Assembly (NCBI GenBank): GCA_017962745.1
Contig: JAGCUR010000013.1
Coordinates: forward strand, 1,046-65,045
Source: Bacilli bacterium
Lineage (GTDB): Bacteria; Bacillota_I; Bacilli_A; ML615J-28; CAG-698
Length of the DNA: 64,000 nucleotides
Direction: 5' to 3'
Shown in pieces: positions 16,738 to 30,463 of this stretch. The notes below the pieces were generated by a model, which saw only the letters and a program-made list of their open reading frames with translations, was not told the DNA's origin and did not search any database. Position numbers and translations under genes: made by a program. Position 1 is the first letter of the stretch; every line of letters begins with the position of its first letter.

Positions 16738-18600
16738 CTACTTGTTTTTCGCATCCCACTTTTTACGTTCAACAGTATCTAAGATTCGCTTTCTTAATCT
16801 AACGCTTCTTGGTGTTATTTCAACAAGTTCATCATCGTTAATATAATCTAAGCATGCTTCTAGACTCATACGACGTGGTTTCTTTAAAACAACAGTAACT
16901 TCTTTATTTGATTCACGCATGTTTGTTAAATTCTTTTGTTTAGCAACATTAACGCTCATATCTTCTTCACGGTTACATTCACCAACGATTTGGCCTTCAT
17001 ATACTTCTTCATGTGGTTCAATAAATAATACGCCTCTGTCTTCAATATTACCAATACCATATGCATTACTAGTTCCGGTAAAGGCAGCAACTAGTACTCC
17101 CCACTTACGATTACCTAAAGTCGCATTTGCATCCATTGGACGGTAGTCTAAAAATGAATGTGATAAAGTTCCATAACCTTTTGTGGCAGTAAGGAAAGAT
17201 GTTGATAAGCCAATTAGTCCGCGGGAAGGGATTGTATAGATGATTCTAGTTTGGCTACCATCAGCACTCATATCTTCAAAGATACCACCACGGTTTCCAA
17301 ATAAGCTAATAACATCTCCTGCTGATTCATTTGGTACATCGATTTGCGCAAATTCGTAAGGTTCGCAAACGACCCCATCGATTTCTTTTAAAATCGGTTT
17401 TGGTCTTGATACTTGGAATTCATATCCTTCGCGACGCATATTTTCGATTAATATACCAAGATGTAATTCTCCTCTTCCGCAGACGATCCATTCATCACTA
17501 GTACCAATTCTTTTTACTCTTAAGCTAACATCCTTTTGAGTTTCTTTAAATAATCTATCATCAATTTTAGTACTAGTAACAAACTTGCCTTCTTTACCCG
17601 CAAATGGTGAAGTATTAGTACCAAAGATCATTTCGATAGTTGGTTCACTAACATGGATTGGTGGTAGGGCTTCTTCAGCGCCAACATCGCACACAGTTTC
17701 CCCTACATATATGTCACCAAGCCCAGCTATCGCTACGATATCACCTGCATAAGCGACTTCTGTTTCAATTTTATTTAAACCTAAAAATGTAAAGATCTTT
17801 TGAATTCTAAATTGCTTAATTGATCCATCCATTCGCATACAACTTGCCATTTGGTTAACGCGCATTACTCCGCGTTGAATCCTTCCAATTGCCATTCTAC
17901 CAACGTAGTCATTATAATCAAGTAATGATCCTTGGAATTGTAAGCTACCATCTTTGTTTACTGCTTTATGCGTTTTATCAGGAGCCGGAATTTCACTAAC
18001 AATTAAATCAAATAAAGGATCCATTGTCTCCTCTTGGGTTTCTAAGTCACTTGACAAGCTACACGTTCCTTTTAAAGCACTAACATATGCAACTTTAAAA
18101 TCAATTTGTTCATCTGTGGCACCTAACTCAATAAATAAGTCGATTACTTCATCTACAACCTCTTCGCATCTAGCCGAATCTTTGTCAACTTTATTGATAA
18201 CTACAATTGGCTTTAAGCCATATTCTAAAGCTTTCTTTAAAACAAATCGTGTTTGTGGCATTGTACCTTCATAGGCATCTACTACAAGTAATACACCATC
18301 AACCATTGTCATGATTCTTTCAACTTCGCCTGAAAAATCTGCATGGCCTGGTGTATCCAAAATATTAATTTTATAATTCTTATAATATATAGCAGTATTC
18401 TTAGCTAGAATAGTAATTCCTCTTTCACGTTCCAAATCATTAGAATCAAGTGCTCTTTCTTCAATTTGTTCTCTAGCTTGAAGAGTTGCACTCTTTTTTA
18501 ATAACTGGTCAACAAGAGTAGTTTTACCATGGTCAACATGTGCAATAATAGCTATATTTCTAATTTCCATATTTTCCATATATTCACTCTTTCTAGTCAA
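16738..18600 (-). CDS. typA: translational GTPase TypA/BipA
   Basis: IRNIAIIAHVDHGKTTLVD, DTPGHADF, NKVD motifs. The true start is probably at MENMEIRN, about 18576-18579, rather than the longest ORF. Confidence 0.9.
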   Translation of the reverse strand: MTRKSEYMENMEIRNIAIIAHVDHGKTTLVDQLLKKSATLQAREQIEERALDSNDLERERGITILAKNTAIYYKNYKINILDTPGHADFSGEVERIMTMVDGVLLVVDAYEGTMPQTRFVLKKALEYGLKPIVVINKVDKDSARCEEVVDEVIDLFIELGATDEQIDFKVAYVSALKGTCSLSSDLETQEETMDPLFDLIVSEIPAPDKTHKAVNKDGSLQFQGSLLDYNDYVGRMAIGRIQRGVMRVNQMASCMRMDGSIKQFRIQKIFTFLGLNKIETEVAYAGDIVAIAGLGDIYVGETVCDVGAEEALPPIHVSEPTIEMIFGTNTSPFAGKEGKFVTSTKIDDRLFKETQKDVSLRVKRIGTSDEWIVCGRGELHLGILIENMRREGYEFQVSRPKPILKEIDGVVCEPYEFAQIDVPNESAGDVISLFGNRGGIFEDMSADGSQTRIIYTIPSRGLIGLSTSFLTATKGYGTLSHSFLDYRPMDANATLGNRKWGVLVAAFTGTSNAYGIGNIEDRGVLFIEPHEEVYEGQIVGECNREEDMSVNVAKQKNLTNMRESNKEVTVVLKKPRRMSLEACLDYINDDELVEITPRSVRLRKRILDTVERKKWDAKNK

Positions 18601-20116
18601 AATTGATATGAATCATTTTTAGTTCATCATAAAAGTTCTTTTCGTGTGATACTAAAATAACAGTTCCGGGATAAGTTGCTATCTTTTCAAATAAAGATTT
18701 TTTAGCTAACTTATCAAGATGGTTAGTAGGCTCATCCAAGATTAGCAAATTAGATTTAGTTAAAGATAATTTAGCAAATCTAACTTTAGCAGCCTCGCCT
18801 CCGCTTAAATACTTCATACTCTTTAAAGGTAATTCTCCACTTACTCCATAACGAGCGAGGATTCCACGAATCTCTTTATCATCCAGCTGTGGATAATCAT
18901 TTCTAAAGTATTGCATAGCAGTAATATCTTCGGGTTCTTCTTCTTGAGCATAATAATAAATTGTATTTAAATCAGTTAAATCAAAGTTTCCTTTAATTGG
19001 TGCTAGCTTTCCTAAAATAGTTTTTACGAAAGTCGTCTTACCAATACCATTTTTCCCAATGATTACATACTTTTTACCAAATTCTAGTTTTAAGTTAATA
19101 TGTTCTAAAATTGGATGCGTATAACCAATACTTAAATCATTAACAACTAATGGTGATTTATGAAATGATTTTGTAAATTCAAAATTAAAGTGTACTGGCT
19201 TTTCGCTAACTGGCTTTTCCATTACTTCCAACCTATCAAGTATCTTTTGTCTACTTTGCGCACGGTGCGTAGTAGATGCTCTAACTAAGTTTTTATTAAT
19301 GAAGTCTTGTTGATGCTTGATATAAGCTTGTTGACGATTATATGCTTTCTCATAAGCGATACGATTTACTTCGTGTTGCTTTAAGTAAGCATCATAATTA
19401 CCTTTATAACGAGCAAGCAGTTTGTTTTCTAAAACCAATGTCACATCGCATACATTATTTAAAAAATCTACATTATGGCTAATTACAATAAAACTATTCT
19501 TATAGCCTGTTAAAAACTTAGTTAACCATTCTACGTGTCTAGCATCTAAAAAGTTAGTAGGTTCATCTAGTAACAATACATCTTTTTCTTCAAGTAACAT
19601 CTTACCTAAAAATACTTTAGCTCTTTGTCCACCTGATAATTCTTTTAAGCTTCTACCTTCTTCTATATCAATACCTAAACCGTTTATTACATTACCAATT
19701 TTAGATTTAATCATATAAAAGTTGTTTTCATCTAAAAAAGTTTGAATGTTTTCCGCTTTTCTTAAAATCTTATCATAATCATCAGGATTAGCATCAACTA
19801 AACTGTTATATAAATTATTCATCTCCTCTTCTTTTTTAAATAATGGTGTATAAACGTCATATAAATAGTCAGTTATTGAAATATCAGTTTTAACTTCAAG
19901 TTGTTGATCCAAATACGAAAATGTTACATTCTTATCCCAAATGATTTTACCTTCATCTGGAGTTAGGCGAAAGGCAAGTAAATTCATTAATGTAGATTTA
20001 CCAACACCATTTAGCCCAATCAAGCCAACATGTTCGCCATTATATATAGTTACTGATGCTTTATTAAAAAGTTCTTGTGCACCATAACCAAATTTTAAGT
20101 CGATAATCTCTAACAT
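18593..20116 (-). CDS. ABC-F family ATPase (tandem NBDs, no TMD)
   Basis: 507 aa. Two Walker A motifs (GLNGVGKST, GKNGIGKTT) and two LSGG signatures. No membrane domain. Confidence 0.85.
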   Translation of the reverse strand: MLEIIDLKFGYGAQELFNKASVTIYNGEHVGLIGLNGVGKSTLMNLLAFRLTPDEGKIIWDKNVTFSYLDQQLEVKTDISITDYLYDVYTPLFKKEEEMNNLYNSLVDANPDDYDKILRKAENIQTFLDENNFYMIKSKIGNVINGLGIDIEEGRSLKELSGGQRAKVFLGKMLLEEKDVLLLDEPTNFLDARHVEWLTKFLTGYKNSFIVISHNVDFLNNVCDVTLVLENKLLARYKGNYDAYLKQHEVNRIAYEKAYNRQQAYIKHQQDFINKNLVRASTTHRAQSRQKILDRLEVMEKPVSEKPVHFNFEFTKSFHKSPLVVNDLSIGYTHPILEHINLKLEFGKKYVIIGKNGIGKTTFVKTILGKLAPIKGNFDLTDLNTIYYYAQEEEPEDITAMQYFRNDYPQLDDKEIRGILARYGVSGELPLKSMKYLSGGEAAKVRFAKLSLTKSNLLILDEPTNHLDKLAKKSLFEKIATYPGTVILVSHEKNFYDELKMIHINFD

Positions 20117-20282
20117 GGTTACTCCCCTTCTTATCTAACTATTGCATTTTACCATAAATAGCATCCATTTACAATAAAATGAGAAATGTAAAAGGTTACA
20201 GCTATTGAAATTATGAGAGTTATCTGTGATTATTTATTTCATTAAACACGCTTTATAATAAATTAGATATTTTAATAATATA

Positions 20283-20345
20283 ATTAAAAAGAAATGATAA
20301 TCAATAATTAGCATCTATTATGCTTTATTAATAATTATCATTTCT
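20283..20345 (-). terminator. nested inverted repeat / terminator at the distal end of the Rhs-immunity locus
   Basis: 11-bp perfect IR GAAATGATAAT...ATTATCATTTC with an inner AGCAT/ATGCT stem, followed by a T-run on the minus strand. Confidence 0.5.
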
Positions 20346-20376
20346 CAATTGTGACATTTTTTCACAAACTAATATA

Positions 20377-21525
20377 TTATTGTAAAAACTCATATATAAA
20401 GAATCTATGGCTATCAATGTCTACCGTTAGAACTAGATATTCATCATATTTGAAGTAATCTATTTCGTTTTCTTTCAATCCTTCAATAGAATATACAAAA
20501 CAATAATCTATTTCCTCGTTGCTAATCGTTAGAGCAACATCGTATGGAAAATCGCTTGGATTACATTTTATAAAATCATTATTATTTTTAAGTTCATTAA
20601 ACTTTATAGCAAATTCATCTTCATTTGTTGTTGTAACAACAATTTCTCTAGTTGATTTGACAACTCTGCTTTCAATAATTGCATTTTTTGGTAATTGATA
20701 ACTTATTTTACTTTCAATATTCTTGATGATATCTGAATCGTAAGTAACAGGTGATACCCTTTGAAGGACTACGGAAAATGTGAACGCTAATAAAGCAAAC
20801 GATATTACTAATATTGATGTAATAAAAAACTTCTTCGCTTGTAGTAACAATCTCTTCCAAAATGCAGCAAAACATAACAAAAACATTGCTGGGATCATAC
20901 TTAATATGAATATCCACGATAAACTCATTACTTTGTCAACATACCAATAATAATCATTAGCTATTATTTTTGTTATCAAAAGACCAATAGGAAATACGTT
21001 CAAAGTGGTAATAAACAATAAATCCGTTATGGATGATGTATACACAATCTTTCTATCACTAATTTTACATCTACTCATATGCACATCATTGATACCTTGT
21101 TTACAATGCATGCTTAAGTAATCAATATATTCCTTTCGTTTATAAATTTTTACGTCATACATCTTTTCATTTGCGATGATATTACAATCAAAATATCCTC
21201 GAGAATTTAATGTATACATATACTTTTTTATGTCTGAAAGTTTAATAATATCGTTTTTTATACCTCTTAATATGTATAGCTTTTCATCTGTTCCAATCAC
21301 TTTATACTGAGTTTCGAATAGCACTATGAAATATATGATGGATAAAAAAAGCACAAAAATAATTGGTATTATGCGAACAAAAAAGTTTACTTTTCTATCC
21401 ATCAGCCAACTCGTCAACATTGACACAGCGAAAATAATTGATGGTAAAAAAATAGCAACCGCAGTAGCATTTTTGTTATAATCCACAAAAGAATAAATAC
21501 TTGAATCTTTGCTTTTATTAACCAT
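20377..21525 (-). CDS. polytopic membrane protein, candidate immunity protein for the orphan Rhs toxin cassette
   Basis: About 382 aa from the ATG at 21523-21525 (AGGTG RBS). The track ORF starts at an upstream GTG. Several TM helices. It overlaps the 3' end of the orphan CT by 8 nt. Confidence 0.6.
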   Translation of the reverse strand: MVNKSKDSSIYSFVDYNKNATAVAIFLPSIIFAVSMLTSWLMDRKVNFFVRIIPIIFVLFLSIIYFIVLFETQYKVIGTDEKLYILRGIKNDIIKLSDIKKYMYTLNSRGYFDCNIIANEKMYDVKIYKRKEYIDYLSMHCKQGINDVHMSRCKISDRKIVYTSSITDLLFITTLNVFPIGLLITKIIANDYYWYVDKVMSLSWIFILSMIPAMFLLCFAAFWKRLLLQAKKFFITSILVISFALLAFTFSVVLQRVSPVTYDSDIIKNIESKISYQLPKNAIIESRVVKSTREIVVTTTNEDEFAIKFNELKNNNDFIKCNPSDFPYDVALTISNEEIDYCFVYSIEGLKENEIDYFKYDEYLVLTVDIDSHRFFIYEFLQ

Positions 21526-22381
21526 AGTATGCACCTAACAAATTATCATTATCGAATTCTTTAACACAGCAGTATCTACCGCCTCCGCAAAAGCAACTAA
21601 CGAGTACAGTTCCTGCAACACCAACAATAATAGCACCGGTGGCTTGCTTTCCCTCAATCGCCATTGTTGAGTAAATTCCATCTGAAGAATACCCAGATTT
21701 AAAACCCATTGTTCCATCTTTTGATATTGTGACACCATATACAACACCATTTTTTAATATAACATCGATTCCAGCTGTTTTTTTTGATTGATAAAGTTCA
21801 ATTTTTACAGAATCACCGATTGGAAATCCAGAGCCAAAATAGGTTGTATCATTTCCCCGATCAACAAATGAATATCGTCCACCGTAGTTTTCGTGACTTT
21901 CTCCAACTGTGAAGGTGATGTTAACTATAGTATTACCAAACAGTTCATTACTGATCAAAGAATGTGTATAATGTGTCCTATCTGATACGTTTATTACCAC
22001 GTGACAACTAAGTAACAAGCCACCATTTTGCTGAAATGCGCTTGTCATTTTTTTATTAGAGGATAATAAAAATATACCAGTTGTTCTTCTCGTTATAGTC
22101 ACACTTGAATTTTCATAAACCAAAAGTATAGGATTATTTAAACAATACGCATATAGATTTAATCCACCAGCTACATTAGCATTTAAGTAATCCACACTAT
22201 CATACGATATAAATCTACCCCAATTAGGATTATAATATCTAGTTTTTAAATAATATAAATTATTTTCATAATCTATATAATATGATTTATAAATAATATG
22301 ATTAATATTACTTAAATCAACGCCTGGTAAATGACTTACATCAATTATATTACCATATGCATCATAAGTATATTCTAACAC
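21518..22381 (-). CDS. orphan Rhs C-terminal toxin cassette (5'-truncated, no ATG; about 80 aa of conserved Rhs core end plus about 207-aa novel CT)
   Basis: First about 80 aa (VLEYTYDAYGNIID...RYYNPNWGRFISYDSVDYL...NLYAYCLN) are near-identical to residues of the large Rhs protein. The apparent start is GTG, which equals the Val of the parent sequence. Divergent tail with a C-terminal Gly/Cys-rich hydrophobic segment. Confidence 0.7.
   Translation of the reverse strand: MLEYTYDAYGNIIDVSHLPGVDLSNINHIIYKSYYIDYENNLYYLKTRYYNPNWGRFISYDSVDYLNANVAGGLNLYAYCLNNPILLVYENSSVTITRRTTGIFLLSSNKKMTSAFQQNGGLLLSCHVVINVSDRTHYTHSLISNELFGNTIVNITFTVGESHENYGGRYSFVDRGNDTTYFGSGFPIGDSVKIELYQSKKTAGIDVILKNGVVYGVTISKDGTMGFKSGYSSDGIYSTMAIEGKQATGAIIVGVAGTVLVSCFCGGGRYCCVKEFDNDNLLGAYYG
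22142..22381. repeat. about 240-bp direct repeat (copy 2) of the rhs core-end region, about 90% identical to 23841-24080
   Basis: Judged by direct DNA comparison of the two segments. Confidence 0.8.
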
Positions 22382-22437
22382 AATCTTTTTATATTTTTAA
22401 GATTTTGGCTTCATATTATTTGCAATTAAACATTGCA

Positions 22438-23310
22438 TTAATTGCGATTTGAAATATACTCATATCTTTCATCAGAAAAGACACTTTTATTAAAATAAAC
22501 AAATTGTATACTATTATTTTCTAAATCGTATTCATATACTATATCAGAAGTAAAAATGTTATTCAGGCCAAGCCGATAAATAAGTAAAATATGACCATAA
22601 GAAATATATATTTTACATGGCTTATATTCAACTTTTGACATATCTTCGCGGTATTGAGAGTTTTCAAAATAGTCATTATTAATGATAGTAACTTCGTCTG
22701 TCAAAAGATCTTTTATTTCAAAAGATTTTCTATCATCGGTAATTTTTACATCAATATTATATTTCTTTTTTTGCTCCTCATATCTAATATCTTCTAGATT
22801 GACGTTTTCGCCTTTTGAATAATTGTAATATCTTTTTTCTATCACATCATATACATCAATAATATTTGATTCATCTTTAGTACTATATAAAATATAAAAA
22901 CAATTATCAAAAGTCATATACTTTGGGTTCTTTTTTATTGATTCAGTGGTGTATAACTGATTTACTACATTATCAAGCATATTCATCGAATAAAAAGTTA
23001 TTTTTACATTTGACAAACCGCGCTCATATAAATAGAATACTTCATTTGATGTAAGAATTATTTGATTATTGTCATAAATCTTGTTTATAGCAAAAATTGA
23101 TTTTTCATATTCTCTATATTCAACAGAAGCACTTGTTATATCAGCTATATTTTCGTTATTTTCGTATTTTTCGAATATTTTTTCAATTTTGTCTTCAGTT
23201 CGATATCTTTTTTCATCTCTTATATATAGCCATAGTTCAAAAATTACAAATAGGATGCTTACTACTATTATTGGGAAAATTATAAAGTAAATCTTTTTCT
23301 TAATTGCCAT
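22438..23310 (-). CDS. candidate immunity protein for the main Rhs toxin (N-terminal TM anchor)
   Basis: 290 aa. AGGAGGG RBS. ATG overlaps the rhs 3' end by 31 nt. N-terminal TM FIIFPIIVVSILFVIFELWLY. I recognise no family. Confidence 0.6.
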   Translation of the reverse strand: MAIKKKIYFIIFPIIVVSILFVIFELWLYIRDEKRYRTEDKIEKIFEKYENNENIADITSASVEYREYEKSIFAINKIYDNNQIILTSNEVFYLYERGLSNVKITFYSMNMLDNVVNQLYTTESIKKNPKYMTFDNCFYILYSTKDESNIIDVYDVIEKRYYNYSKGENVNLEDIRYEEQKKKYNIDVKITDDRKSFEIKDLLTDEVTIINNDYFENSQYREDMSKVEYKPCKIYISYGHILLIYRLGLNNIFTSDIVYEYDLENNSIQFVYFNKSVFSDERYEYISNRN

Positions 23311-26300
23311 GGGTACCCTCCTATAAAATTGTAAAAATCTTGGGTTGCAGCAAAAGGATTAAAGTTCCAATAAAGAAGTTGCATACCAGCCGAACACACT
23401 ATTTCATCTATCTCTGTTCTCCCGATAATATCGTTATAAATTGTATGCCCCACATCCAAATCTTTAAATCGTGGATTTTTGGTCAAAGCGTATGCGATAT
23501 TATGACAAAGCCACTCAAACTCGACACCTATAGACGAGCCATCAATAATATCTCTCGTTTTTTCTTTAAAATAATTCAAATATATGCTGTATCCATATTT
23601 TATCCATGGGGTATGTATTTTTGACGAATCTTTCAAAGTCACATTACCATCTTTTACTATGATGTCGTCTTCTTCATTTATATTGCCCATAGCAATAATA
23701 TCCGATGTTGTTGATGCAACAGCGCCTATCATAGTGGCAATAGGATCTGCTAGTACTGCACCAATATACATAACGATCGTCCAAAATTTTCCCCAATCAA
23801 ATGTCCCTTCTGGATCGCAGCCATTTACAGGATCATTCAAGCAATATGCGTATAAATTTAATCCACTAGCTATATTAGCATTTAAGTAATCTACACTATC
23901 ATATGATATAAACCTACCCCAATTAGGATTATAATATCTAGTTTTTAAATAATATAAATTATTTTCATAATCTATATAATACGATTTATAAATAATATGG
24001 TTAATATTACTTAAATTAACGCCTGGTAAATGATTTACATCAATAATATTCCCATATGCATCATAAGTATATTCTAAAACAATATTACCAATGCTGTTAG
24101 AAATGTATTTAATTACTCCTAATATATCTTTAATATAGCAATATGTACTACCATTATATATAAAGCCATATACATTATTATCTTTATCATATAAATACTT
24201 AACAATATAAAAACTATTATTATTTAAATTTGTTATCTTTTCCCCAACTAAATTACCTTTAATATCATAAACATATTTAAATGATTTGTCATCAGTTACT
24301 TTTTTAATTCTTCTGCCTAAATGATCATAATCATAACTAATAGTACCATAGCTCTTTAGTTTCATCCCTTCCCAAGTTAAATTGGTATTGTTGATTGTTG
24401 ATGGGAGGGAATTGGTATAAGAATCATATGTGATGATTTCAATATCATTATTATTTTCATCTGTTATTCTAGTTAATGCATTTTTGTTTAGATTATCTTC
24501 ATATTTGTAATTTCGTGTATTAACAACAACATCGTTTACTTTAATCTCTCTTTTTAAAATGTTACCACTATTATCATATGTATATACTCTTTCTTGAGCA
24601 GAGTTTTGTTCTAAATTCTTGTCATGTGTTAAGTAACCTAATGCATTATATTCATATTGTTTAATAATATTATTATTTCTTTTGATCTTTTTTATTCGAT
24701 TCATTGAATCATATATGTATTCTAATGTCATATTATTATTTAAGTAAGATATGATTTCATTTTCAACTTTTGATGTTCCATTATAATCATATGCATATGA
24801 TGTCTTTTTGTAATTATATGTATTACATATAATTAGATTATCATCATGTATTATATTTCTTTTTGATAATCTATTTAGGCTATCATATTTATTTTCTAAT
24901 AATGAATGATTTAAGAACATCATATCGTTTTGTAAAGAACTGATACTTTTATATGTTCTATCGATGCATAGCATCTCAATAAAACCATCTAATGGCTCAC
25001 TTAAATCATTGGTATTACCTAACTGTAATTTTAAATAATTACTATCCAGATTTATACTTAATGCATAGTCGTCTATATAATTATTATTAAGTACAACTCT
25101 ATAATTAAATGTACCATTATTATAATAATACGAAAAAGCTAATGTATTTACATCATTATTAATAACTAAACTATTGCTAATTAAATTATTATTTAAATAT
25201 AGTTTATTATTAATTATTGATAATTTAATAGCTTGATTATCTGCAAATAATCTAAATAATGTTTTTGATTCAGCTTCATTAATATTATTCTCGTTTATTG
25301 TAAACCTTAATAAAATTGTACCTGAATTCGTTAAGCCTGTCTGATAAATTACTTTATTTTTATTTACGTATAGATTACATCTATGCGACTTTTTATTATA
25401 AATAAAGGAATTATCAATAAGTTCGTTATTATCTTTAGTTACATCAATTAAATCCACTTGCAAAGTATGCATATTTGGTAAAGTTTTAAAATCATTAAAT
25501 AATGGTAAAACTTTATAATTATCTAATAGCGATTGATTGAACAATGTAGTTGAAGTAAAGCCTGTGAATGTATAATTACCATCATATTCAATATTACCAA
25601 ATACATAGTTTAGACCAAAATATGATAATTCATATACGCCATTAAAGTTAATCCCTCTATGTGCAATAATCCCATATACATATAAATTAGCACCATAAGT
25701 TTGATTATCGGAAGTGCATCCAATTGAAAGTTTTTTAAATGTTACATTACTAACACTACAATTATAATCTTTATTGTTAATGAGTAAATGCAATGTATTA
25801 CTATCAAGCACTAAAGATATCGCATATATTTTATTAGTATCTAATTCAATATATTCATTGATTAACTGATTATTACCATAATTGCAACTTATATAATGAG
25901 TACTAGAATTATAAGTTACATATAGATTAATATCACTTGAACTTTTGAAAGATGCAATTATGCCTCCTGCTTTAATTTTTGAAAAGACTGTAACGCCATT
26001 AATTTGTTTATTTGTAATATCGTAAGTTAATCTAGTTTGCGTGCTTATAAGTTTTATTATTGAAACGCAGTGCTCACTAACAATTAAAGGGTTAACATTT
26101 GATGTAATAACATCTTCATCTATTCCCCCGTTATCGCCTTTATAAACTAAATTACTACTTTCTAAATCAAAAAAACACGAATAATTAGCATTATGATCAT
26201 TTGATCTTGCTAGCCTTATCTTTTCATAATAATGCTCAGGTGCAAATACATTGCTTTCTTTAGAATCAGTAAATGCTTGAAACGTCTCATTACTATCGTT

Positions 26301-28817
26301 AAATATCAAATTATATAATCTAATAATACTATTTGTATTATCACGAAGCATATTTGATACAATTTCGTTACTTTCAATTTCGCACAAATTATCTTCTTCA
26401 TCATATGCTAAATTAATGGTAGAATCATTTGTATTATTATGGATTTCTTTTAATCTATTATATGCATCATATAGAAAACTAAATTTACTAATATCTGTAC
26501 TAGTACCATGATCTCTATATTTTACTGTCGATAAATTATATTTGTTATCATAATCAAAAATGTATTTATCCCCATTATCACCATACTCTTTTGATTTAAT
26601 TAAAGATAGATGGGGAAGAGATGATGAATCTTCATTTACATATTTAATATTTATTAAACTTTTATATATAATCTGATAGGTATCATCATATATTAATCTT
26701 ACACTTGATAATCGATTATCATTATTATAAACGCTTTGTACCTCATTATCGCGTCTGTCAGTTAAAACATCAACTGCTAAATTAGATCCATAACTTATTA
26801 AATTTTGATCTTTAAGTACATCGTTGTCATCTTTGATGACTACGCTATTTAATAAATTCTTTTGATTATATGAATAAAAATATTGGCTACCATCTGGTAA
26901 TACCTTTCTTTCCACTAAATAATGTTTTGTCCCATTACTTTCATATTCTATTTGATAATCTTCTACTTTTTCTCTAGAAATGAATTCCCCATTTGATTCA
27001 TATTCATATTCTTTTCTTAGATATATTTTTCTATCTTTGAAAACAGATGCATCATACTCATGACTAGTTAATACTTCGTTTGTAACTTCGTTATAATTAT
27101 TGTATTGGTAATTTGTTTTATTGCCAAATAGCCCTGCTTGTTCTTCTATTAAATCATCACTCACTAAGTTATTATCTCTAGTAGCAATATAGTTATAATC
27201 ATAATGCGTTATATTATATTTTCCAAATGCACTAATTACTTTATTGTTTTCATTTATTAAATATTTAGTTTCGTTTTTACCAACTAATATATTCGTAATA
27301 TTATTGTTATTATCATAAGTATATGCAAAACCTGCTATTTGTTTAGTTAAACATATTGAATCAAATGTGTATGTGGCTCCACTTCCTTTTATAAAGAATA
27401 ATACTTTGATTTTGTCAAAACCAACTTCTGGATTAATCTCAAAAAAGAATAATTCTTTATAATCCGTGTTACTTGGCAACGCCTTAGAATAAGTTATCCA
27501 CTCATTGTTACCTTTTAATAATGATATTTTAACTGTCGCGCTAGTTCCTTCTACTTCACATTTAGTTAAACATCTAAATACATAAGTATCTAAAGGCGTA
27601 CCGCTAACATTAATTATTTGATATGTACTGCTTACAAAAGGTATGGAATTGTTTTGTATTTTTAATAGTTTTGAAGATGTTACATATTCATTATTGTAAT
27701 AATAATTAGCATCAGCATTATTTATATATGATACATTAGCATTATCAGACTGCCAAGATGGTGTACTTCCTTGGCAAAAACCATCACTTATTAAATTATT
27801 AATTTCTGTTTGATGTAAATAATTATTTTTAAAAGCATTTGATTTAAAAATAATATTTTTGCGTGAATCAAATCTTTGCCCTGCTATATATTTATTTGTA
27901 TCAATTATATGATTAATTAAATAATTATCATCAAAATAATAATGAGTATGCATATTATTATAACTAACAACTGTGTGATAATTATTTATTAAATTAATAG
28001 AGGTTACATCAAAAGTATTATCATTAGTGCCTCTACCTTCATATACTGTATATGTACCATTTGTTGGGTGTTCTACTAATATTCTTTCTTTTGTGATTGT
28101 ATTGTACATTTGATAAACCGGATCGAATGATAATTGTATATTATTAACTAGATTATTTGTTCCATTATTAATAATATAATAATTAATATTGTTTATATAA
28201 TTTGAAGAAAAAGTAATTATAACTTTGCGTACGTTTACATAATCTTTTCTAATTGTTGCTTCGAGTGCCCCATAAATCATTGGCATAAAATCTATTGCTT
28301 CACCATAATTATTATAAATAGATTCTATGTAGTCTTCATCATAACTGAAATGGATTTTATTAATTGTATTATTTCTATCTTCAATTAATATTAATTTGTA
28401 TGAAGAATCAAATGTATATACACTATCAATATAGACAATCTTTTTTTGATTGTTCTCTATTACCATATATGAAGCAAGGTCAATATTTTCATATCTATTA
28501 TTTTGATTGATGTAATCTTCTGTTGACATATCAGCGTTTGTAACTACATATTTATCATTTTGACTATCGTATGATAATTCTTTCATAATAGACAGTTTAC
28601 AACCAGTTTTAAAATTACAATCAACTTCATTGCTTGAGGAAGTATATATTAAAGATAAATTTATTGGAGATAATTTATAAGGGGAATTATAAAGGGGAAT
28701 TATAAAATGAAGATTATCAAAGTTTTTTGATAAATTAATATACGTGTTAGATCCATCGCTTATAGATGCATTGAAATATGTTCCATATGATTTGATACCT
28801 TGATTAGCCATAATCAT
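23280..28817 (-). CDS. Rhs / YD-repeat polymorphic toxin (1845 aa)
   Basis: Many YD-type repeats (YDxxGN..., YxYDxxGR...). Rhs core end RYYNPNWGRFISYDSV...NLYAYCLNDPVNGCDPEGT. A variable CT of about 175 aa follows. AGGAGT RBS. No signal peptide. Confidence 0.9.
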   Translation of the reverse strand: MIMANQGIKSYGTYFNASISDGSNTYINLSKNFDNLHFIIPLYNSPYKLSPINLSLIYTSSSNEVDCNFKTGCKLSIMKELSYDSQNDKYVVTNADMSTEDYINQNNRYENIDLASYMVIENNQKKIVYIDSVYTFDSSYKLILIEDRNNTINKIHFSYDEDYIESIYNNYGEAIDFMPMIYGALEATIRKDYVNVRKVIITFSSNYINNINYYIINNGTNNLVNNIQLSFDPVYQMYNTITKERILVEHPTNGTYTVYEGRGTNDNTFDVTSINLINNYHTVVSYNNMHTHYYFDDNYLINHIIDTNKYIAGQRFDSRKNIIFKSNAFKNNYLHQTEINNLISDGFCQGSTPSWQSDNANVSYINNADANYYYNNEYVTSSKLLKIQNNSIPFVSSTYQIINVSGTPLDTYVFRCLTKCEVEGTSATVKISLLKGNNEWITYSKALPSNTDYKELFFFEINPEVGFDKIKVLFFIKGSGATYTFDSICLTKQIAGFAYTYDNNNNITNILVGKNETKYLINENNKVISAFGKYNITHYDYNYIATRDNNLVSDDLIEEQAGLFGNKTNYQYNNYNEVTNEVLTSHEYDASVFKDRKIYLRKEYEYESNGEFISREKVEDYQIEYESNGTKHYLVERKVLPDGSQYFYSYNQKNLLNSVVIKDDNDVLKDQNLISYGSNLAVDVLTDRRDNEVQSVYNNDNRLSSVRLIYDDTYQIIYKSLINIKYVNEDSSSLPHLSLIKSKEYGDNGDKYIFDYDNKYNLSTVKYRDHGTSTDISKFSFLYDAYNRLKEIHNNTNDSTINLAYDEEDNLCEIESNEIVSNMLRDNTNSIIRLYNLIFNDSNETFQAFTDSKESNVFAPEHYYEKIRLARSNDHNANYSCFFDLESSNLVYKGDNGGIDEDVITSNVNPLIVSEHCVSIIKLISTQTRLTYDITNKQINGVTVFSKIKAGGIIASFKSSSDINLYVTYNSSTHYISCNYGNNQLINEYIELDTNKIYAISLVLDSNTLHLLINNKDYNCSVSNVTFKKLSIGCTSDNQTYGANLYVYGIIAHRGINFNGVYELSYFGLNYVFGNIEYDGNYTFTGFTSTTLFNQSLLDNYKVLPLFNDFKTLPNMHTLQVDLIDVTKDNNELIDNSFIYNKKSHRCNLYVNKNKVIYQTGLTNSGTILLRFTINENNINEAESKTLFRLFADNQAIKLSIINNKLYLNNNLISNSLVINNDVNTLAFSYYYNNGTFNYRVVLNNNYIDDYALSINLDSNYLKLQLGNTNDLSEPLDGFIEMLCIDRTYKSISSLQNDMMFLNHSLLENKYDSLNRLSKRNIIHDDNLIICNTYNYKKTSYAYDYNGTSKVENEIISYLNNNMTLEYIYDSMNRIKKIKRNNNIIKQYEYNALGYLTHDKNLEQNSAQERVYTYDNSGNILKREIKVNDVVVNTRNYKYEDNLNKNALTRITDENNNDIEIITYDSYTNSLPSTINNTNLTWEGMKLKSYGTISYDYDHLGRRIKKVTDDKSFKYVYDIKGNLVGEKITNLNNNSFYIVKYLYDKDNNVYGFIYNGSTYCYIKDILGVIKYISNSIGNIVLEYTYDAYGNIIDVNHLPGVNLSNINHIIYKSYYIDYENNLYYLKTRYYNPNWGRFISYDSVDYLNANIASGLNLYAYCLNDPVNGCDPEGTFDWGKFWTIVMYIGAVLADPIATMIGAVASTTSDIIAMGNINEEDDIIVKDGNVTLKDSSKIHTPWIKYGYSIYLNYFKEKTRDIIDGSSIGVEFEWLCHNIAYALTKNPRFKDLDVGHTIYNDIIGRTEIDEIVCSAGMQLLYWNFNPFAATQDFYNFIGGYPWQLRKRFTL
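23841..24080. repeat. about 240-bp direct repeat (copy 1) inside the rhs gene, homologous to 22142-22381
   Basis: Judged by direct DNA comparison. Encodes VLEYTYD...AYCLN. Confidence 0.8.
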
Positions 28818-28921
28818 TTACTCCTTTTTCTTTATAATAAAATTATACATTTATAATATTGCATATGTAAACATTATAAAAGAAAAACAATGACTATAGT
28901 TAGCCATTGTCTTTCTTTTTA

Positions 28922-30463
28922 TTAATCATCAGCACCAAGTGCATCTAATCCTTTAGCATTTTCACCAGTATCTTTTTTATGTGGTGCCTTTACAAAGAAG
29001 AATACAGCACCAGCTATACCCATTAGGGTAGCTGAGTAAATTGGTAAAGCAACCCAACTAGTTTTGATGAAGATGAAACCGATTAGAATTGGTGTAATCG
29101 ATTGAGCTAACATACTAGCTGTATAGTATAGTGAAGTAAATCTTCCAAGTTTATCTGATGTACAATAATCAGTTACAAGAGGGAATGAACAAATATGGAT
29201 TAATGATGATCCAAATCCGATTGCTGGTAACAATACGAAGAATAACCAAGGAAGGCTAGCTGCGAATGTTCCATGAGTATTTGATTCAGGAATTAATGAA
29301 TAGATGATGTAACATACACATACTAAGCAAATACCTGAGAATATTGTCCATTTACGACCAATCTTATCAGCTAAGAAACCAGCTGTTAAGAAACCGATGA
29401 TTGAAGCAGCACCTGATACAACTGTCATGATAGCTCCACCGGCACTAGATGTATCTAGCCAGAACATTACATAGTTTGTTTGGAATGTTTCTACGGCATT
29501 TAGTGACATGAACCAGAACATTTCTGCAATTAGAATTAACACTAAGTTACGCATATTGTTCTTTGATAGTTTTTCAGTAGTTGTAACTTGTTCTGCAGAT
29601 TCACCCATCGCATCACCAAGTTTGATTTCTTCATCAAGTTCTTCGTGTAATTTATTTTCTCTTACTTTAAATAATAAAAGAACTAAAGATCCTAGCAAGC
29701 AGACGCTGCAAACAATAAATGGGATTTCTAACATTAATAATGATCTATTAGAACCATCAATATATTTTGTAACTGGAATTACGATAGCTGCAACTGATCC
29801 AACTGCTCCACCAACATAACCAACGATATTGATAATACCATTAGCTCTACTTCTTAGTGGTTTTGGTGTTAAGTCTGGCATTAATGCAACAGCTGGTGAA
29901 CGATAACTCATCATGAAGATGATGATTAAGCACATCATTGCAACCATTCCGACAATCATTCCTAGCATAGCTGCGCTTTCAGCTGCCATTGCTTTAACGA
30001 AGAATAGTGGAACAAATGGTAGAACCATTGCTGTAACAACTGATCCTACGATGATAAATGGCATTCTCTTACCAAGTTTAGTTTTAGTCTTATCTGATAA
30101 GTTACCAAATATAGGCATAATGAATAAAGCAGCGATATTATCAAGTGCCATGATAATACCTACTTTCCATTGAATTTGTAAGTAATCTTGTTCAGTAATA
30201 AAGTTATGTGCTAGCAAGTCTTTCATTGTAGCATAACCGGCAGCAGCACCAGCTGCTACTTGATCAGCATAATCATGTCTAGCAAACATAAATGATAACA
30301 TTGGTGCACAATATGAATTATATAATTGCCATACAAGTAAAATACCAAAGAAGGCAAGTCCAATCCACATCGTACGTTTTAAATAATCTTTATTAAACGA
30401 TATCTTTTTTGTTTCTGTTATTTCCATAAACTCCTCCATAACATAACCATTATACCAATTCAC
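28922..30463 (-). CDS. MFS transporter (with long central cytoplasmic loop)
   Basis: 513 aa, at least 12 TM segments. A charged central loop of about 60 aa. Confidence 0.8.
   Translation of the reverse strand: MNWYNGYVMEEFMEITETKKISFNKDYLKRTMWIGLAFFGILLVWQLYNSYCAPMLSFMFARHDYADQVAAGAAAGYATMKDLLAHNFITEQDYLQIQWKVGIIMALDNIAALFIMPIFGNLSDKTKTKLGKRMPFIIVGSVVTAMVLPFVPLFFVKAMAAESAAMLGMIVGMVAMMCLIIIFMMSYRSPAVALMPDLTPKPLRSRANGIINIVGYVGGAVGSVAAIVIPVTKYIDGSNRSLLMLEIPFIVCSVCLLGSLVLLLFKVRENKLHEELDEEIKLGDAMGESAEQVTTTEKLSKNNMRNLVLILIAEMFWFMSLNAVETFQTNYVMFWLDTSSAGGAIMTVVSGAASIIGFLTAGFLADKIGRKWTIFSGICLVCVCYIIYSLIPESNTHGTFAASLPWLFFVLLPAIGFGSSLIHICSFPLVTDYCTSDKLGRFTSLYYTASMLAQSITPILIGFIFIKTSWVALPIYSATLMGIAGAVFFFVKAPHKKDTGENAKGLDALGADD

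Follow-up and report, generated by a model that had tools for sequence, protein, structure and literature searches.

A probable displaced Rhs toxin-immunity cassette, made up of an orphan tip and an overlapping membrane-protein gene, in an uncultured Bacilli genome

In Salmonella Typhimurium LT2, an orphan rhs tip is brought to expression by recombination over a 522-bp, 95% identical repeat, which fuses it to the main rhs gene (PMC3967940). Here we describe a comparable arrangement in a 64,000-nt stretch of DNA from an uncultured member of the Bacilli (assembly GCA_017962745.1, contig JAGCUR010000013.1, forward-strand positions 1,046 to 65,045; the whole stretch is called the window, and coordinates count from its first letter). 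The element in question is an orphan open reading frame (ORF) that joins the end of an Rhs core to a unique C-terminal tip, CT2, and overlaps the gene for a 382-residue membrane protein. As in the Salmonella rhs-CT(orphan)/rhsI(orphan) pair (PMC3967940; PMC3150448), a 5'-truncated rhs fragment lies downstream of a main rhs gene and its immunity gene (in the window a presumed one), shares a stretch of core with the main gene (261 nt, 92% identical in the window), is without expression signals and precedes an immunity gene of its own, here a candidate. The two loci differ in that the window comes from a Gram-positive-type Bacilli metagenome-assembled genome (MAG) with a different export route, the toxin and immunity families are unrelated, and the repeat is shorter. 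In addition, Salmonella Rhs-CTs start at the second DPxGL motif, which the window orphan lacks.

Three further systems provide comparisons for the possible action of the tip. The C-terminal tip of the Pseudomonas aeruginosa Rhs protein Tse5 (RhsP1) inserts into and depolarises the cytoplasmic membrane, and its immunity protein Tsi5 has two transmembrane (TM) helices (PMC9637101). Like Tse5, CT2 is a tip carried by an Rhs protein and shows no signature of an enzyme, and like Tsi5, the module common to all CT2-linked proteins contains two TM helices. However, no sequence or fold similarity between Tse5 and CT2 was detected. Tse5 is delivered by the type VI secretion system of a Gram-negative bacterium, and its tip is released by a DPxGL-(18)-DPxGL autoprotease, of which CT2 lacks the second Asp; CT2, in turn, has a large β body and a 382-residue immunity candidate with two extra soluble domains, and its activity is a prediction only. 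The Staphylococcus aureus toxin EsxX is an LXG protein with a glycine zipper, which depolarises membranes and has ExiCD and ExiAB as its partners (PMC12744356). Protection on both sides of the membrane in that system may have a counterpart in the 382-residue protein, which is predicted to have one cytoplasmic and one extracellular domain, although for EsxX it involves separate proteins and is experimental, while for the window it is a guess based on topology; the shell of EsxX is that of an LXG protein of the type VII secretion system instead of Rhs, and the protein families are different. The ionophore CdiA-CT tips of contact-dependent inhibition (CDI) dissipate the membrane potential, and the genes directly downstream encode the corresponding CdiI proteins, which are small, strongly polymorphic and integral to the membrane (PMC11630599). 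Toxin and immunity protein diversify together in CDI ionophore systems, as in the comparison of CT2 loci. The ionophore domains are predicted five-helix bundles, unlike CT2, which is mostly β with one terminal helix, and CDI relies on Gram-negative two-partner secretion and shows no homology to CT2.

We regard it as probable that the window carries a displaced Rhs toxin-immunity cassette, in which CT2 stays silent until recombination and then attacks the cytoplasmic membrane by means of its tail, and in which the membrane protein neutralises it. The toxin-immunity part of this reading is well supported by comparison of the sequences with those of their relatives. A pore or other membrane mechanism for CT2 is plausible, given the conserved tail, the membrane location of the putative immunity proteins, the lack of an enzyme signature, and the analogy with Tse5/Tsi5, EsxX/ExiCD and the CDI ionophores. 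That the membrane protein probably neutralises CT2 is suggested by strict gene linkage, co-diversification, and retention of its gene after loss of the toxin.

The orphan rhs-CT ORF (287 codons and a stop, minus strand, 21518..22381) is deposited as NCBI MBP5551175.1 under the label 'RHS repeat-associated core domain-containing protein', and lies distal to the main rhs gene and a gene for a 290-residue protein. Its residues 6-86, just before the variable tip, match TIGR03696, the Rhs-associated core domain, with 58.3 bits (cutoff 32.5). The 5' end of the orphan forms a direct repeat of 261 nt with the end of the core of the main rhs gene (minus strand, 22127..22387 vs 23826..24086, 92% identical at a spacing of 1699 bp), which both genes read in one frame and orientation. 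The homology opens 6 nt before the orphan GTG codon and closes right after AAT AAT CCT (NNP, of 'LNNP'). An in-frame TAA stands five codons 5' of the GTG, with K-Y-K-K plus I in between, and no Shine-Dalgarno sequence precedes the GTG. Without translation signals of its own, CT2 would be silent as it stands. Recombination between the core repeats would delete the tip of the main gene (CT1) and its presumed immunity gene, a loss of 1699 bp, and place CT2 in frame on the 1845-residue shell, so that the main rhs gene would supply both the shell and the expression signals.

The two genes diverge directly past LNNP, where the main gene reads 'VNGCDPEGT', the second half of the DPxGL-(18)-DPxGL motif, and the orphan reads 'ILLVYENSS'. 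This motif is the aspartyl autoprotease motif that delimits an Rhs tip (PMC9637101). The main protein has it in the form '...YDSVDY...LNDPVNGCDPEGT', while in the orphan it is incomplete ('LNNPILLVYENSS'), with Tyr in place of the second Asp. Because this second half is missing, the TIGR03696 match of the orphan covers profile positions 1-69 of 76, compared to 1-75 of 76 for the main protein (residues 1585-1671, 63.8 bits). CT2-type tips in general are joined directly after 'NNP' (in the window, at 22100..22140).

CT2 proper comprises the 203 residues after 'YCLNNP' (minus strand, 21521..22129), and consists of a variable linker, a β-meander body of ~110 residues and a hydrophobic tail. Alignments of the family give the motifs H-Y-T, N-x-(S/T)-(Y/F)-T and YSFvDxGNDxxxxGxG. 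The last 48 codons (MAIEGKQ...AYYG, minus strand, 21521..21664) are the most constrained part of the tip, and contain its sole strongly hydrophobic stretch by hydropathy, A247-C265 (minus strand, 21587..21643, 'ATGAIIVGVAGTVLVSCFC', Kyte-Doolittle 19-mer mean 2.07), which is a helix in the AlphaFold2 model and contains a conserved 'VGVAG'. The first-pass annotation of this DNA described an orphan ending in a glycine-zipper-like hydrophobic helix with a Cys cluster, and only part of this description holds. The helix is present and has a small-xxx-small face (A250, G254, T258, S262), but its Gly residues are spaced G249-x4-G254-x2-G257, which is not a canonical GxxxG zipper. The Cys cluster is also present (C263, C265, C271 and C272 in 'SCFCGGGRYCC', minus strand, 21566..21595), but is specific to the clade: one close relative has 'RYRRV' for 'RYCCV', and distant relatives have 'SPIPGGR' for 'SCFCGGGR'. 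The tip does not end at '...VKEF', as was stated, since eleven residues (DNDNLLGAYYG) follow up to the true C-terminus. According to the proposed mechanism, the tail helix would insert into the cytoplasmic membrane of the target, leading to depolarisation or leakage.

The membrane gene (382 codons and a stop, minus strand, 20377..21525, ATG at 21525 with an alternative GTG at 21534) overlaps the orphan stop codon (21518-21520) by 8 nt, in agreement with the overlap reported earlier. Its Shine-Dalgarno sequence, AGGTG, lies 6 nt upstream of the start, within the codons of the CT2 tail, so the protein can be made without CT2. The form deposited at NCBI (MBP5551174.1) has only 280 residues, beginning at Met103 and dropping the first two TM helices (21219..21525). 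The 382-residue form is the likely product, since the 100 upstream codons are conserved (ratio of nonsynonymous to synonymous substitution rates, dN/dS, 0.34 vs the relative L003) and all homologues begin with 'MVNK'. Hydropathy gives five hydrophobic helices, fewer than the six or more proposed at first, in a 2 + 3 arrangement (~20-42 and 48-70, then 166-189, 202-224 and 233-255 in the numbering of the 382-residue form). About 220 of the 382 residues lie outside the membrane, in a basic, β-rich domain of ~95 residues (71-165) and a C-terminal α/β domain of ~125 residues (256-382). The N-terminal module (residues 1-165, minus strand, 21031..21525) thus comprises a TM hairpin and a β-rich domain with a C-terminal helix, and is followed by TM3 to TM5 (minus strand, 20761..21030), with an outward loop 'ANDYYWYVDK' (minus strand, 20932..20961) that is invariant among homologues 60-65% identical, and by the acidic C-terminal domain (minus strand, 20380..20760, 13 K/R vs 24 D/E). 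From the positive-inside rule, the N-terminus and the first soluble domain are predicted to be cytoplasmic, and the loop and C-terminal domain to be extracellular.

The evidence for a dedicated partner comes from the distribution of the membrane gene. Its product forms 4 clusters at 90% identity among 5.8 billion proteins, and wherever a contig extends upstream, the gene adjoins CT2 or a CT2 remnant, with the 8-nt overlap of the stop codon. The idea that it is a conserved transporter with an independent function, raised beforehand as a possible objection, is contradicted by this distribution, and transporter identity was rejected, the best Pfam matches being noise (MFS_1 with 13.9 bits vs a cutoff of 33.4, and DUF4131). 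The pair occurs in two unrelated genome contexts. In one of them (contig L001), Lactamase_B, RlmH and UvrB genes come after it in place of the ABC-F gene of the window, and the DNA homology with the window ends ~113 bp past the membrane gene. CT2 and the membrane gene therefore move as a unit.

The wider family consists of eleven distinct relatives of CT2, all from gut-type metagenomes and MAGs. Of the six matches from an exhaustive phmmer search over 1.84 billion representatives, three (P0008, P0009 and P0010) are true ends of Rhs proteins, one is a 48-residue tail fragment and two are artefacts; a subsequent profile search added P0011-P0015. On inspection of their sequences, the artefacts (P0005 and P0007) are repetitive low-complexity proteins, and were discarded as spurious. 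CT2 gave no match when 5.8 billion proteins were searched with a word index. Scans of GTDB genomes with the membrane-protein and CT2 profiles and a first scan of JGI metagenomes found nothing, and a second JGI scan returned only an already known contig; from the null GTDB scans, the species is not among the GTDB representatives. CT2 is joined to the end of an Rhs core in ten of the eleven relatives, contrary to the suspicion that homologues might never be found fused to Rhs, and the remaining one (P0014) is a fragment without a core, from a similar Rhs-type locus. The close relatives L001-L006, on contigs found via the neighbouring membrane gene, have CT2s of 44-52% identity joined to 'YYNPNWGRFISYDS..NLYAYCLNNP'.

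Shared features of the family are H-Y/H-T, G-N-I-S-Y-T, Y-S-F-x-N/D-x-G-N-D-x4-G-x-G and a run of Gly-rich strands, with invariant polar residues H54, T56, N71, T75, Y87, S88 and G93-N94-D95 (CT2 numbering). A hydrophobic Gly/Ala-rich tail ends every member with an intact C-terminus. Distant relatives have one or two hydrophobic tail segments, often two that are split by 'SPIPGGR' at the position of the 'SCFCGGGR' of the window. P0010 is the tip of an 860-residue Rhs ORF that overlaps a 573-residue ORF just upstream; it has an intact 'VDPNGT' before the tip and also a perfect GxxxGxxxG helix. The second DPxG(L/T) motif is absent in L003, L006, P0009, P0011 and P0013, 'VDPNGT' being found only in P0010, and 7 of 8 CT2 sequence types lack the second catalytic Asp.

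Past every CT2-type stop codon that is followed by further sequence, the next gene encodes a membrane protein. In the distant loci, this is a protein of 114-154 (typically ~145) residues, with a TM hairpin followed by a small β domain. A profile of five of these small proteins aligns with the N-terminal module of the 382-residue protein (hhalign probability 83.5%, E 8.3e-6, columns 37-139 vs 31-138), while the C-terminal half of the membrane protein, used as control, gives 0.9%. Together with the ties of the relatives to Rhs and the strict linkage, this alignment bears out the earlier proposal of an Rhs-type toxin-immunity cassette. The 382-residue protein would be the cognate immunity protein, acting in the membrane; its TM hairpin and cytoplasmic PH-like domain would represent a module common to the immunity candidates of all distant CT2 relatives, and the three further TM helices and extracellular domain an addition by the clade of the window. 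Two consecutive genes for small TM-hairpin proteins follow the toxin in some distant CT2 loci (L010 1775-3086, L016 592-1456, L008 10653-11454), and proteins of the second type show no alignment with those of the first (hhalign probability <5%). The 382-residue protein could have arisen by fusion of two small TM-hairpin genes.

Neither protein belongs to a family known to us, as was also remarked in the first-pass annotation: CT2 and the membrane protein have no match at a meaningful level in Pfam, NCBIfam, PADLOC or the PDB sequences, and nothing below E 0.47 was found in single and profile searches against the latter. In the curated libraries, only the Rhs core domain was recovered, the rest being noise (FAM163, DUF4131, Scm3, Cmr3, E ≥ 0.017). 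The AlphaFold2 model of CT2, built on a shallow alignment, has strands at residues 48-160 and a helix at 165-182, with a predicted local distance difference test (pLDDT) score of 70-75 at residues 90-140, and the best Foldseek match of this low-confidence model in the PDB has E 0.13. For the N-terminal module of the membrane protein, the model consists of two helices, five strands and a helix, with pLDDT <50 in the β domain. The top Foldseek matches of this domain are PH domains, which are weak (E ~0.1-1). Bacterial PH-domain membrane proteins of the bPH_2 and YdbS-YdbT-like type combine a TM hairpin with a PH domain. No bPH family of Pfam matched the 382-residue protein, its first 165 residues or the small relatives, even with E values up to 10 allowed, the search yielding only sub-threshold matches to DUF6560 and DUF6585. 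The C-terminal domain has no fold or family match in these searches, and is modelled with pLDDT mostly 74-86 at residues 270-380, apart from one 10-residue block at 69.

A rival reading divides the labour between body and tail differently. CT2 would still be a toxin, but its β body would be an enzyme or binding domain working on the exterior side of the membrane, with lipid-linked cell-wall precursors or a membrane protein as conceivable targets; the tail would only anchor or position it, and neutralisation would fall to the extracellular domain and outer loop of the partner. The polar residues invariant throughout the family fit this arrangement, as do the modelling of the body as a β-meander of 9-10 strands that include charged ones, and the presence in the immunity candidate of a well-modelled acidic domain, predicted to be extracellular, together with the invariant loop. 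However, no enzyme family or fold was matched in the searches made, the small immunity candidates of the distant relatives have only the TM hairpin and a cytoplasmic-looking domain and lack the extracellular one, and the most constrained part of CT2 is the tail and not the body. We consider this alternative unlikely.

Several observations weigh against a displaced cassette with a membrane-attacking tip. No known pore-former with a sequence or fold like that of CT2 turned up in the searches made, and the structure models are of low confidence (mean pLDDT 49.5 for CT2 and 55.4 for the membrane protein). The β-rich body, with its charged strands and invariant polar residues, would suit an enzymatic or binding role equally well. 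Immunity proteins anchored in the membrane also exist for toxins directed at the cell envelope, so the membrane location of the partner is by itself no proof of a membrane target. In the absence of the second catalytic Asp, a recombinant Rhs-CT2 might lack the canonical release of the tip. No close CT2 homologue is seen on a complete Rhs protein among the L001-L006 contigs, all of which break inside the core repeat, accounting for this. Finally, the membrane gene is kept in strains that lack the toxin, which would also fit an independent function.

Comparison with diverged relatives, at synonymous divergence (dS) of ~0.5-1.2, gives dN/dS of 0.09-0.5 for the two ORFs, apart from one short segment at 0.87, and such low values indicate that both are maintained as coding sequence. 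The Rhs-core part of the orphan has dN/dS of ~0.1 and the CT2 body 0.35-0.43 (0.43 vs L003), while the tail has 0.085 vs L003 (dS 1.0) and 0.35 vs L006. Segments of the membrane gene mostly have 0.14-0.51, the 0.87 being that of its first 100 codons vs L006. The low value of the tail at saturated synonymous sites indicates conservation at the protein level. Recent recombination as the cause of this conservation was ruled out by the same saturation (dS ~1.0).

Selection bears directly on the possibility that CT2 is the decaying remnant of a past rearrangement, and the membrane protein a resident gene product whose function has nothing to do with a toxin. Such a remnant would explain why the orphan lacks a start signal and the DPxG protease motif, and why the membrane gene persists without the toxin. 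Yet three lineages that have diverged at ~50% of residues all keep the CT2 frame intact, at dN/dS of 0.3-0.4; the membrane gene occurs only beside CT2 and moves with it between genome contexts; and its N-terminal module recurs beside distant CT2 relatives. The excess of nonsynonymous changes in the membrane gene of sister strains, described next, speaks for a remnant, but on the whole we judge this explanation very unlikely.

A natural deletion allele of the cassette is found in sister strains with 94-97% nucleotide identity and the same synteny as the window (L017-L023). In L017, L018/L020, L019, L021, L022 and L023, the segment corresponding to 21665..28806 (~7.1 kb, with rhs, the 290-residue protein gene and the CT2 body) is absent. 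At the junction, a 5-nt microhomology (ATGGC), the start of rhs ('ATGATTATGGC') is fused in frame to CT2 codon 240. The product is a hydrophobic ORF of 50 residues, 'MIMAIEGKQVTG...AYYG' (MIMAIEGKQVTGAIIVGVAGTVLVSCFCGGGRYCCVKEFDNDNLLGAYYG), which contains the last 47-48 CT2 codons, takes its promoter, Shine-Dalgarno sequence and start codon from rhs, and still overlaps the start of the membrane gene. The membrane gene itself is intact (382-384 codons) in these strains. Immunity genes usually persist in this way when their toxin is lost. The short allele is found on 11 contigs, compared to 6 with the 287-residue orphan. The reverse order of events, an ancestral Rhs-less allele into which Rhs was inserted, was ruled out, since complete CT2 including the tail is common to diverged lineages and the wider family.

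In L017 compared to the window, synonymous and nonsynonymous codon differences number 3 and 14 in the membrane gene, 82 and 10 in the ABC-F gene, and 0 and 8 in the CT2 tail, the changes in the tail including I>T and two V>A; in L021, they number 9 and 18, 45 and 10, and 0 and 1, respectively. The loop ANDYYWYVDK is altered in toxin-less strains, beginning with ANG, AHG or VHG, and in one orphan-bearing strain, with AHD. Close strains form a mosaic of 91-99.5% nucleotide identity with 18596..21664 of the window, and a sliding identity profile against L017 shows no clean recombination tract. The pattern in the membrane gene is that expected of an immunity gene that has outlived its toxin and then drifts or adapts, and would also fit an unrelated function.

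The deletion allele raises the question of whether the functional unit consists simply of the hydrophobic tail peptide and the membrane protein, as in a type-I-toxin or bacteriocin-immunity pair, with the rest of CT2 being dispensable. The 50-residue ORF is equipped for expression by the rhs promoter, Shine-Dalgarno sequence and start codon, it is intact in all 6 sequence variants of the short allele, and conservation is much higher in the tail than in the body. Nevertheless, the ATGGC microhomology is typical of an accidental deletion, which has a 1 in 3 chance of producing an in-frame fusion; the intact variants are explained by ascertainment, because only intact ORFs would have been clustered; and the purely nonsynonymous changes in the L017 tail look like decay. 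Part of the conservation of the tail DNA is explained by the Shine-Dalgarno sequence and start codon of the membrane gene embedded in it, and all distant family members have a full body. A functional unit of this kind is highly improbable.

A bolder extension of the displaced-cassette reading would make CT2 tips a distinct class of Rhs payload, one whose release does not depend on the canonical autoprotease, as the missing second catalytic Asp in most sequence types suggests, with the 48-residue tail as the warhead. The 382-residue protein would provide two-sided immunity, its cytoplasmic PH-like domain guarding against self-intoxication before export and its extracellular domain and loop against incoming toxin, and the deletion allele would be a minimal toxin and immunity pair, expressed from the rhs promoter and kept by addiction. 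We hold the extended version to be quite unlikely.

If the displaced-cassette reading is correct, it would add an unannotated family of toxin tips (a β-meander body with a hydrophobic tail) and of immunity proteins (a TM hairpin with a PH-like domain) to the Rhs weapons of uncultured gut-type Bacillota. To our knowledge, Rhs-type systems in these bacteria have barely been studied. Strains with the full locus, beside strains that have undergone the 7.1-kb deletion and kept the tail and immunity gene, would offer a natural experiment on the persistence and drift of an immunity gene after toxin loss, and the missing autoprotease motif raises the question of whether every Rhs payload must be cleaved. 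The general picture of polymorphic toxin systems is unaltered: the arrangement is normal for such weapons, both families are tiny and unnamed, and the orphan cassette is an unannotated case of a well-known type of system, with two side features, the absence of the cleavage motif and the deletion allele with its in-frame fusion.

The genes of the region are all on the minus strand, in the order MFS transporter, rhs, 290-residue protein gene, orphan ORF, membrane gene and ABC-F, with a spacer of 260 bp between the last two. Plus-strand ORFs in the interval are only 42-59 residues long and have no support, and no Rfam RNA family was found within 19500..29500. The main rhs gene (1845 codons, minus strand, 23280..28817, from the ORF list) encodes a protein with an RHS_repeat match below threshold (20.6 bits vs a cutoff of 22), and with its own tip CT1 behind 'LNDPVNGCDPEGT'. 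Its N-terminus (28700..28817) begins 'MIMANQGIKSYGTYFN...', in which no signal peptide is obvious by eye, no predictor having been run, and no LXG, PAAR or other recognised export domain was found in the searches made. The Shine-Dalgarno sequence and start codon (AAAGGAGTAAATG, minus strand, ~28815..28827) lie downstream of a promoter-like site, TTTACA-18-TATAAT (minus strand, 28842..28871), which matches 11 of 12 consensus positions and is the best of the region in a scan by consensus only, a type of scan that is uninformative in such AT-rich DNA (96 sites vs 86.5 expected). A terminator-like hairpin (28878..28919) stands directly before this site, and the promoter-like segment is still present in the strains with the deletion allele. 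The 290-residue protein (minus strand, 22438..23310), whose gene overlaps the rhs stop codon, has one N-terminal TM helix and is presumed to be the CT1 immunity protein; neither it nor CT1 has a family match in the curated libraries.

Tips of other kinds occur in related loci. In L009 (104-1292), the main Rhs tip is a different Gly-rich β-type domain, 'GIKVGSASVGIGFDF...GLSAGIGFNL', followed by a 104-residue protein with three TM helices, which may represent a second family of membrane-directed tips in loci of this kind. Across these Bacillota loci, many Rhs tips open with a hydrophobic Gly/Ala-rich helix right behind DPxG, examples being CT1 ('FWTIVMYIGAVLADPIATMIGAV', 23280..23830), P0010 ('FLLGLVVGLVVGALVVGVI'), L008 (8001-10583) and L012 (2849-3550 and 3971-4600), and this helix may be a common membrane-entry element of Rhs tips.

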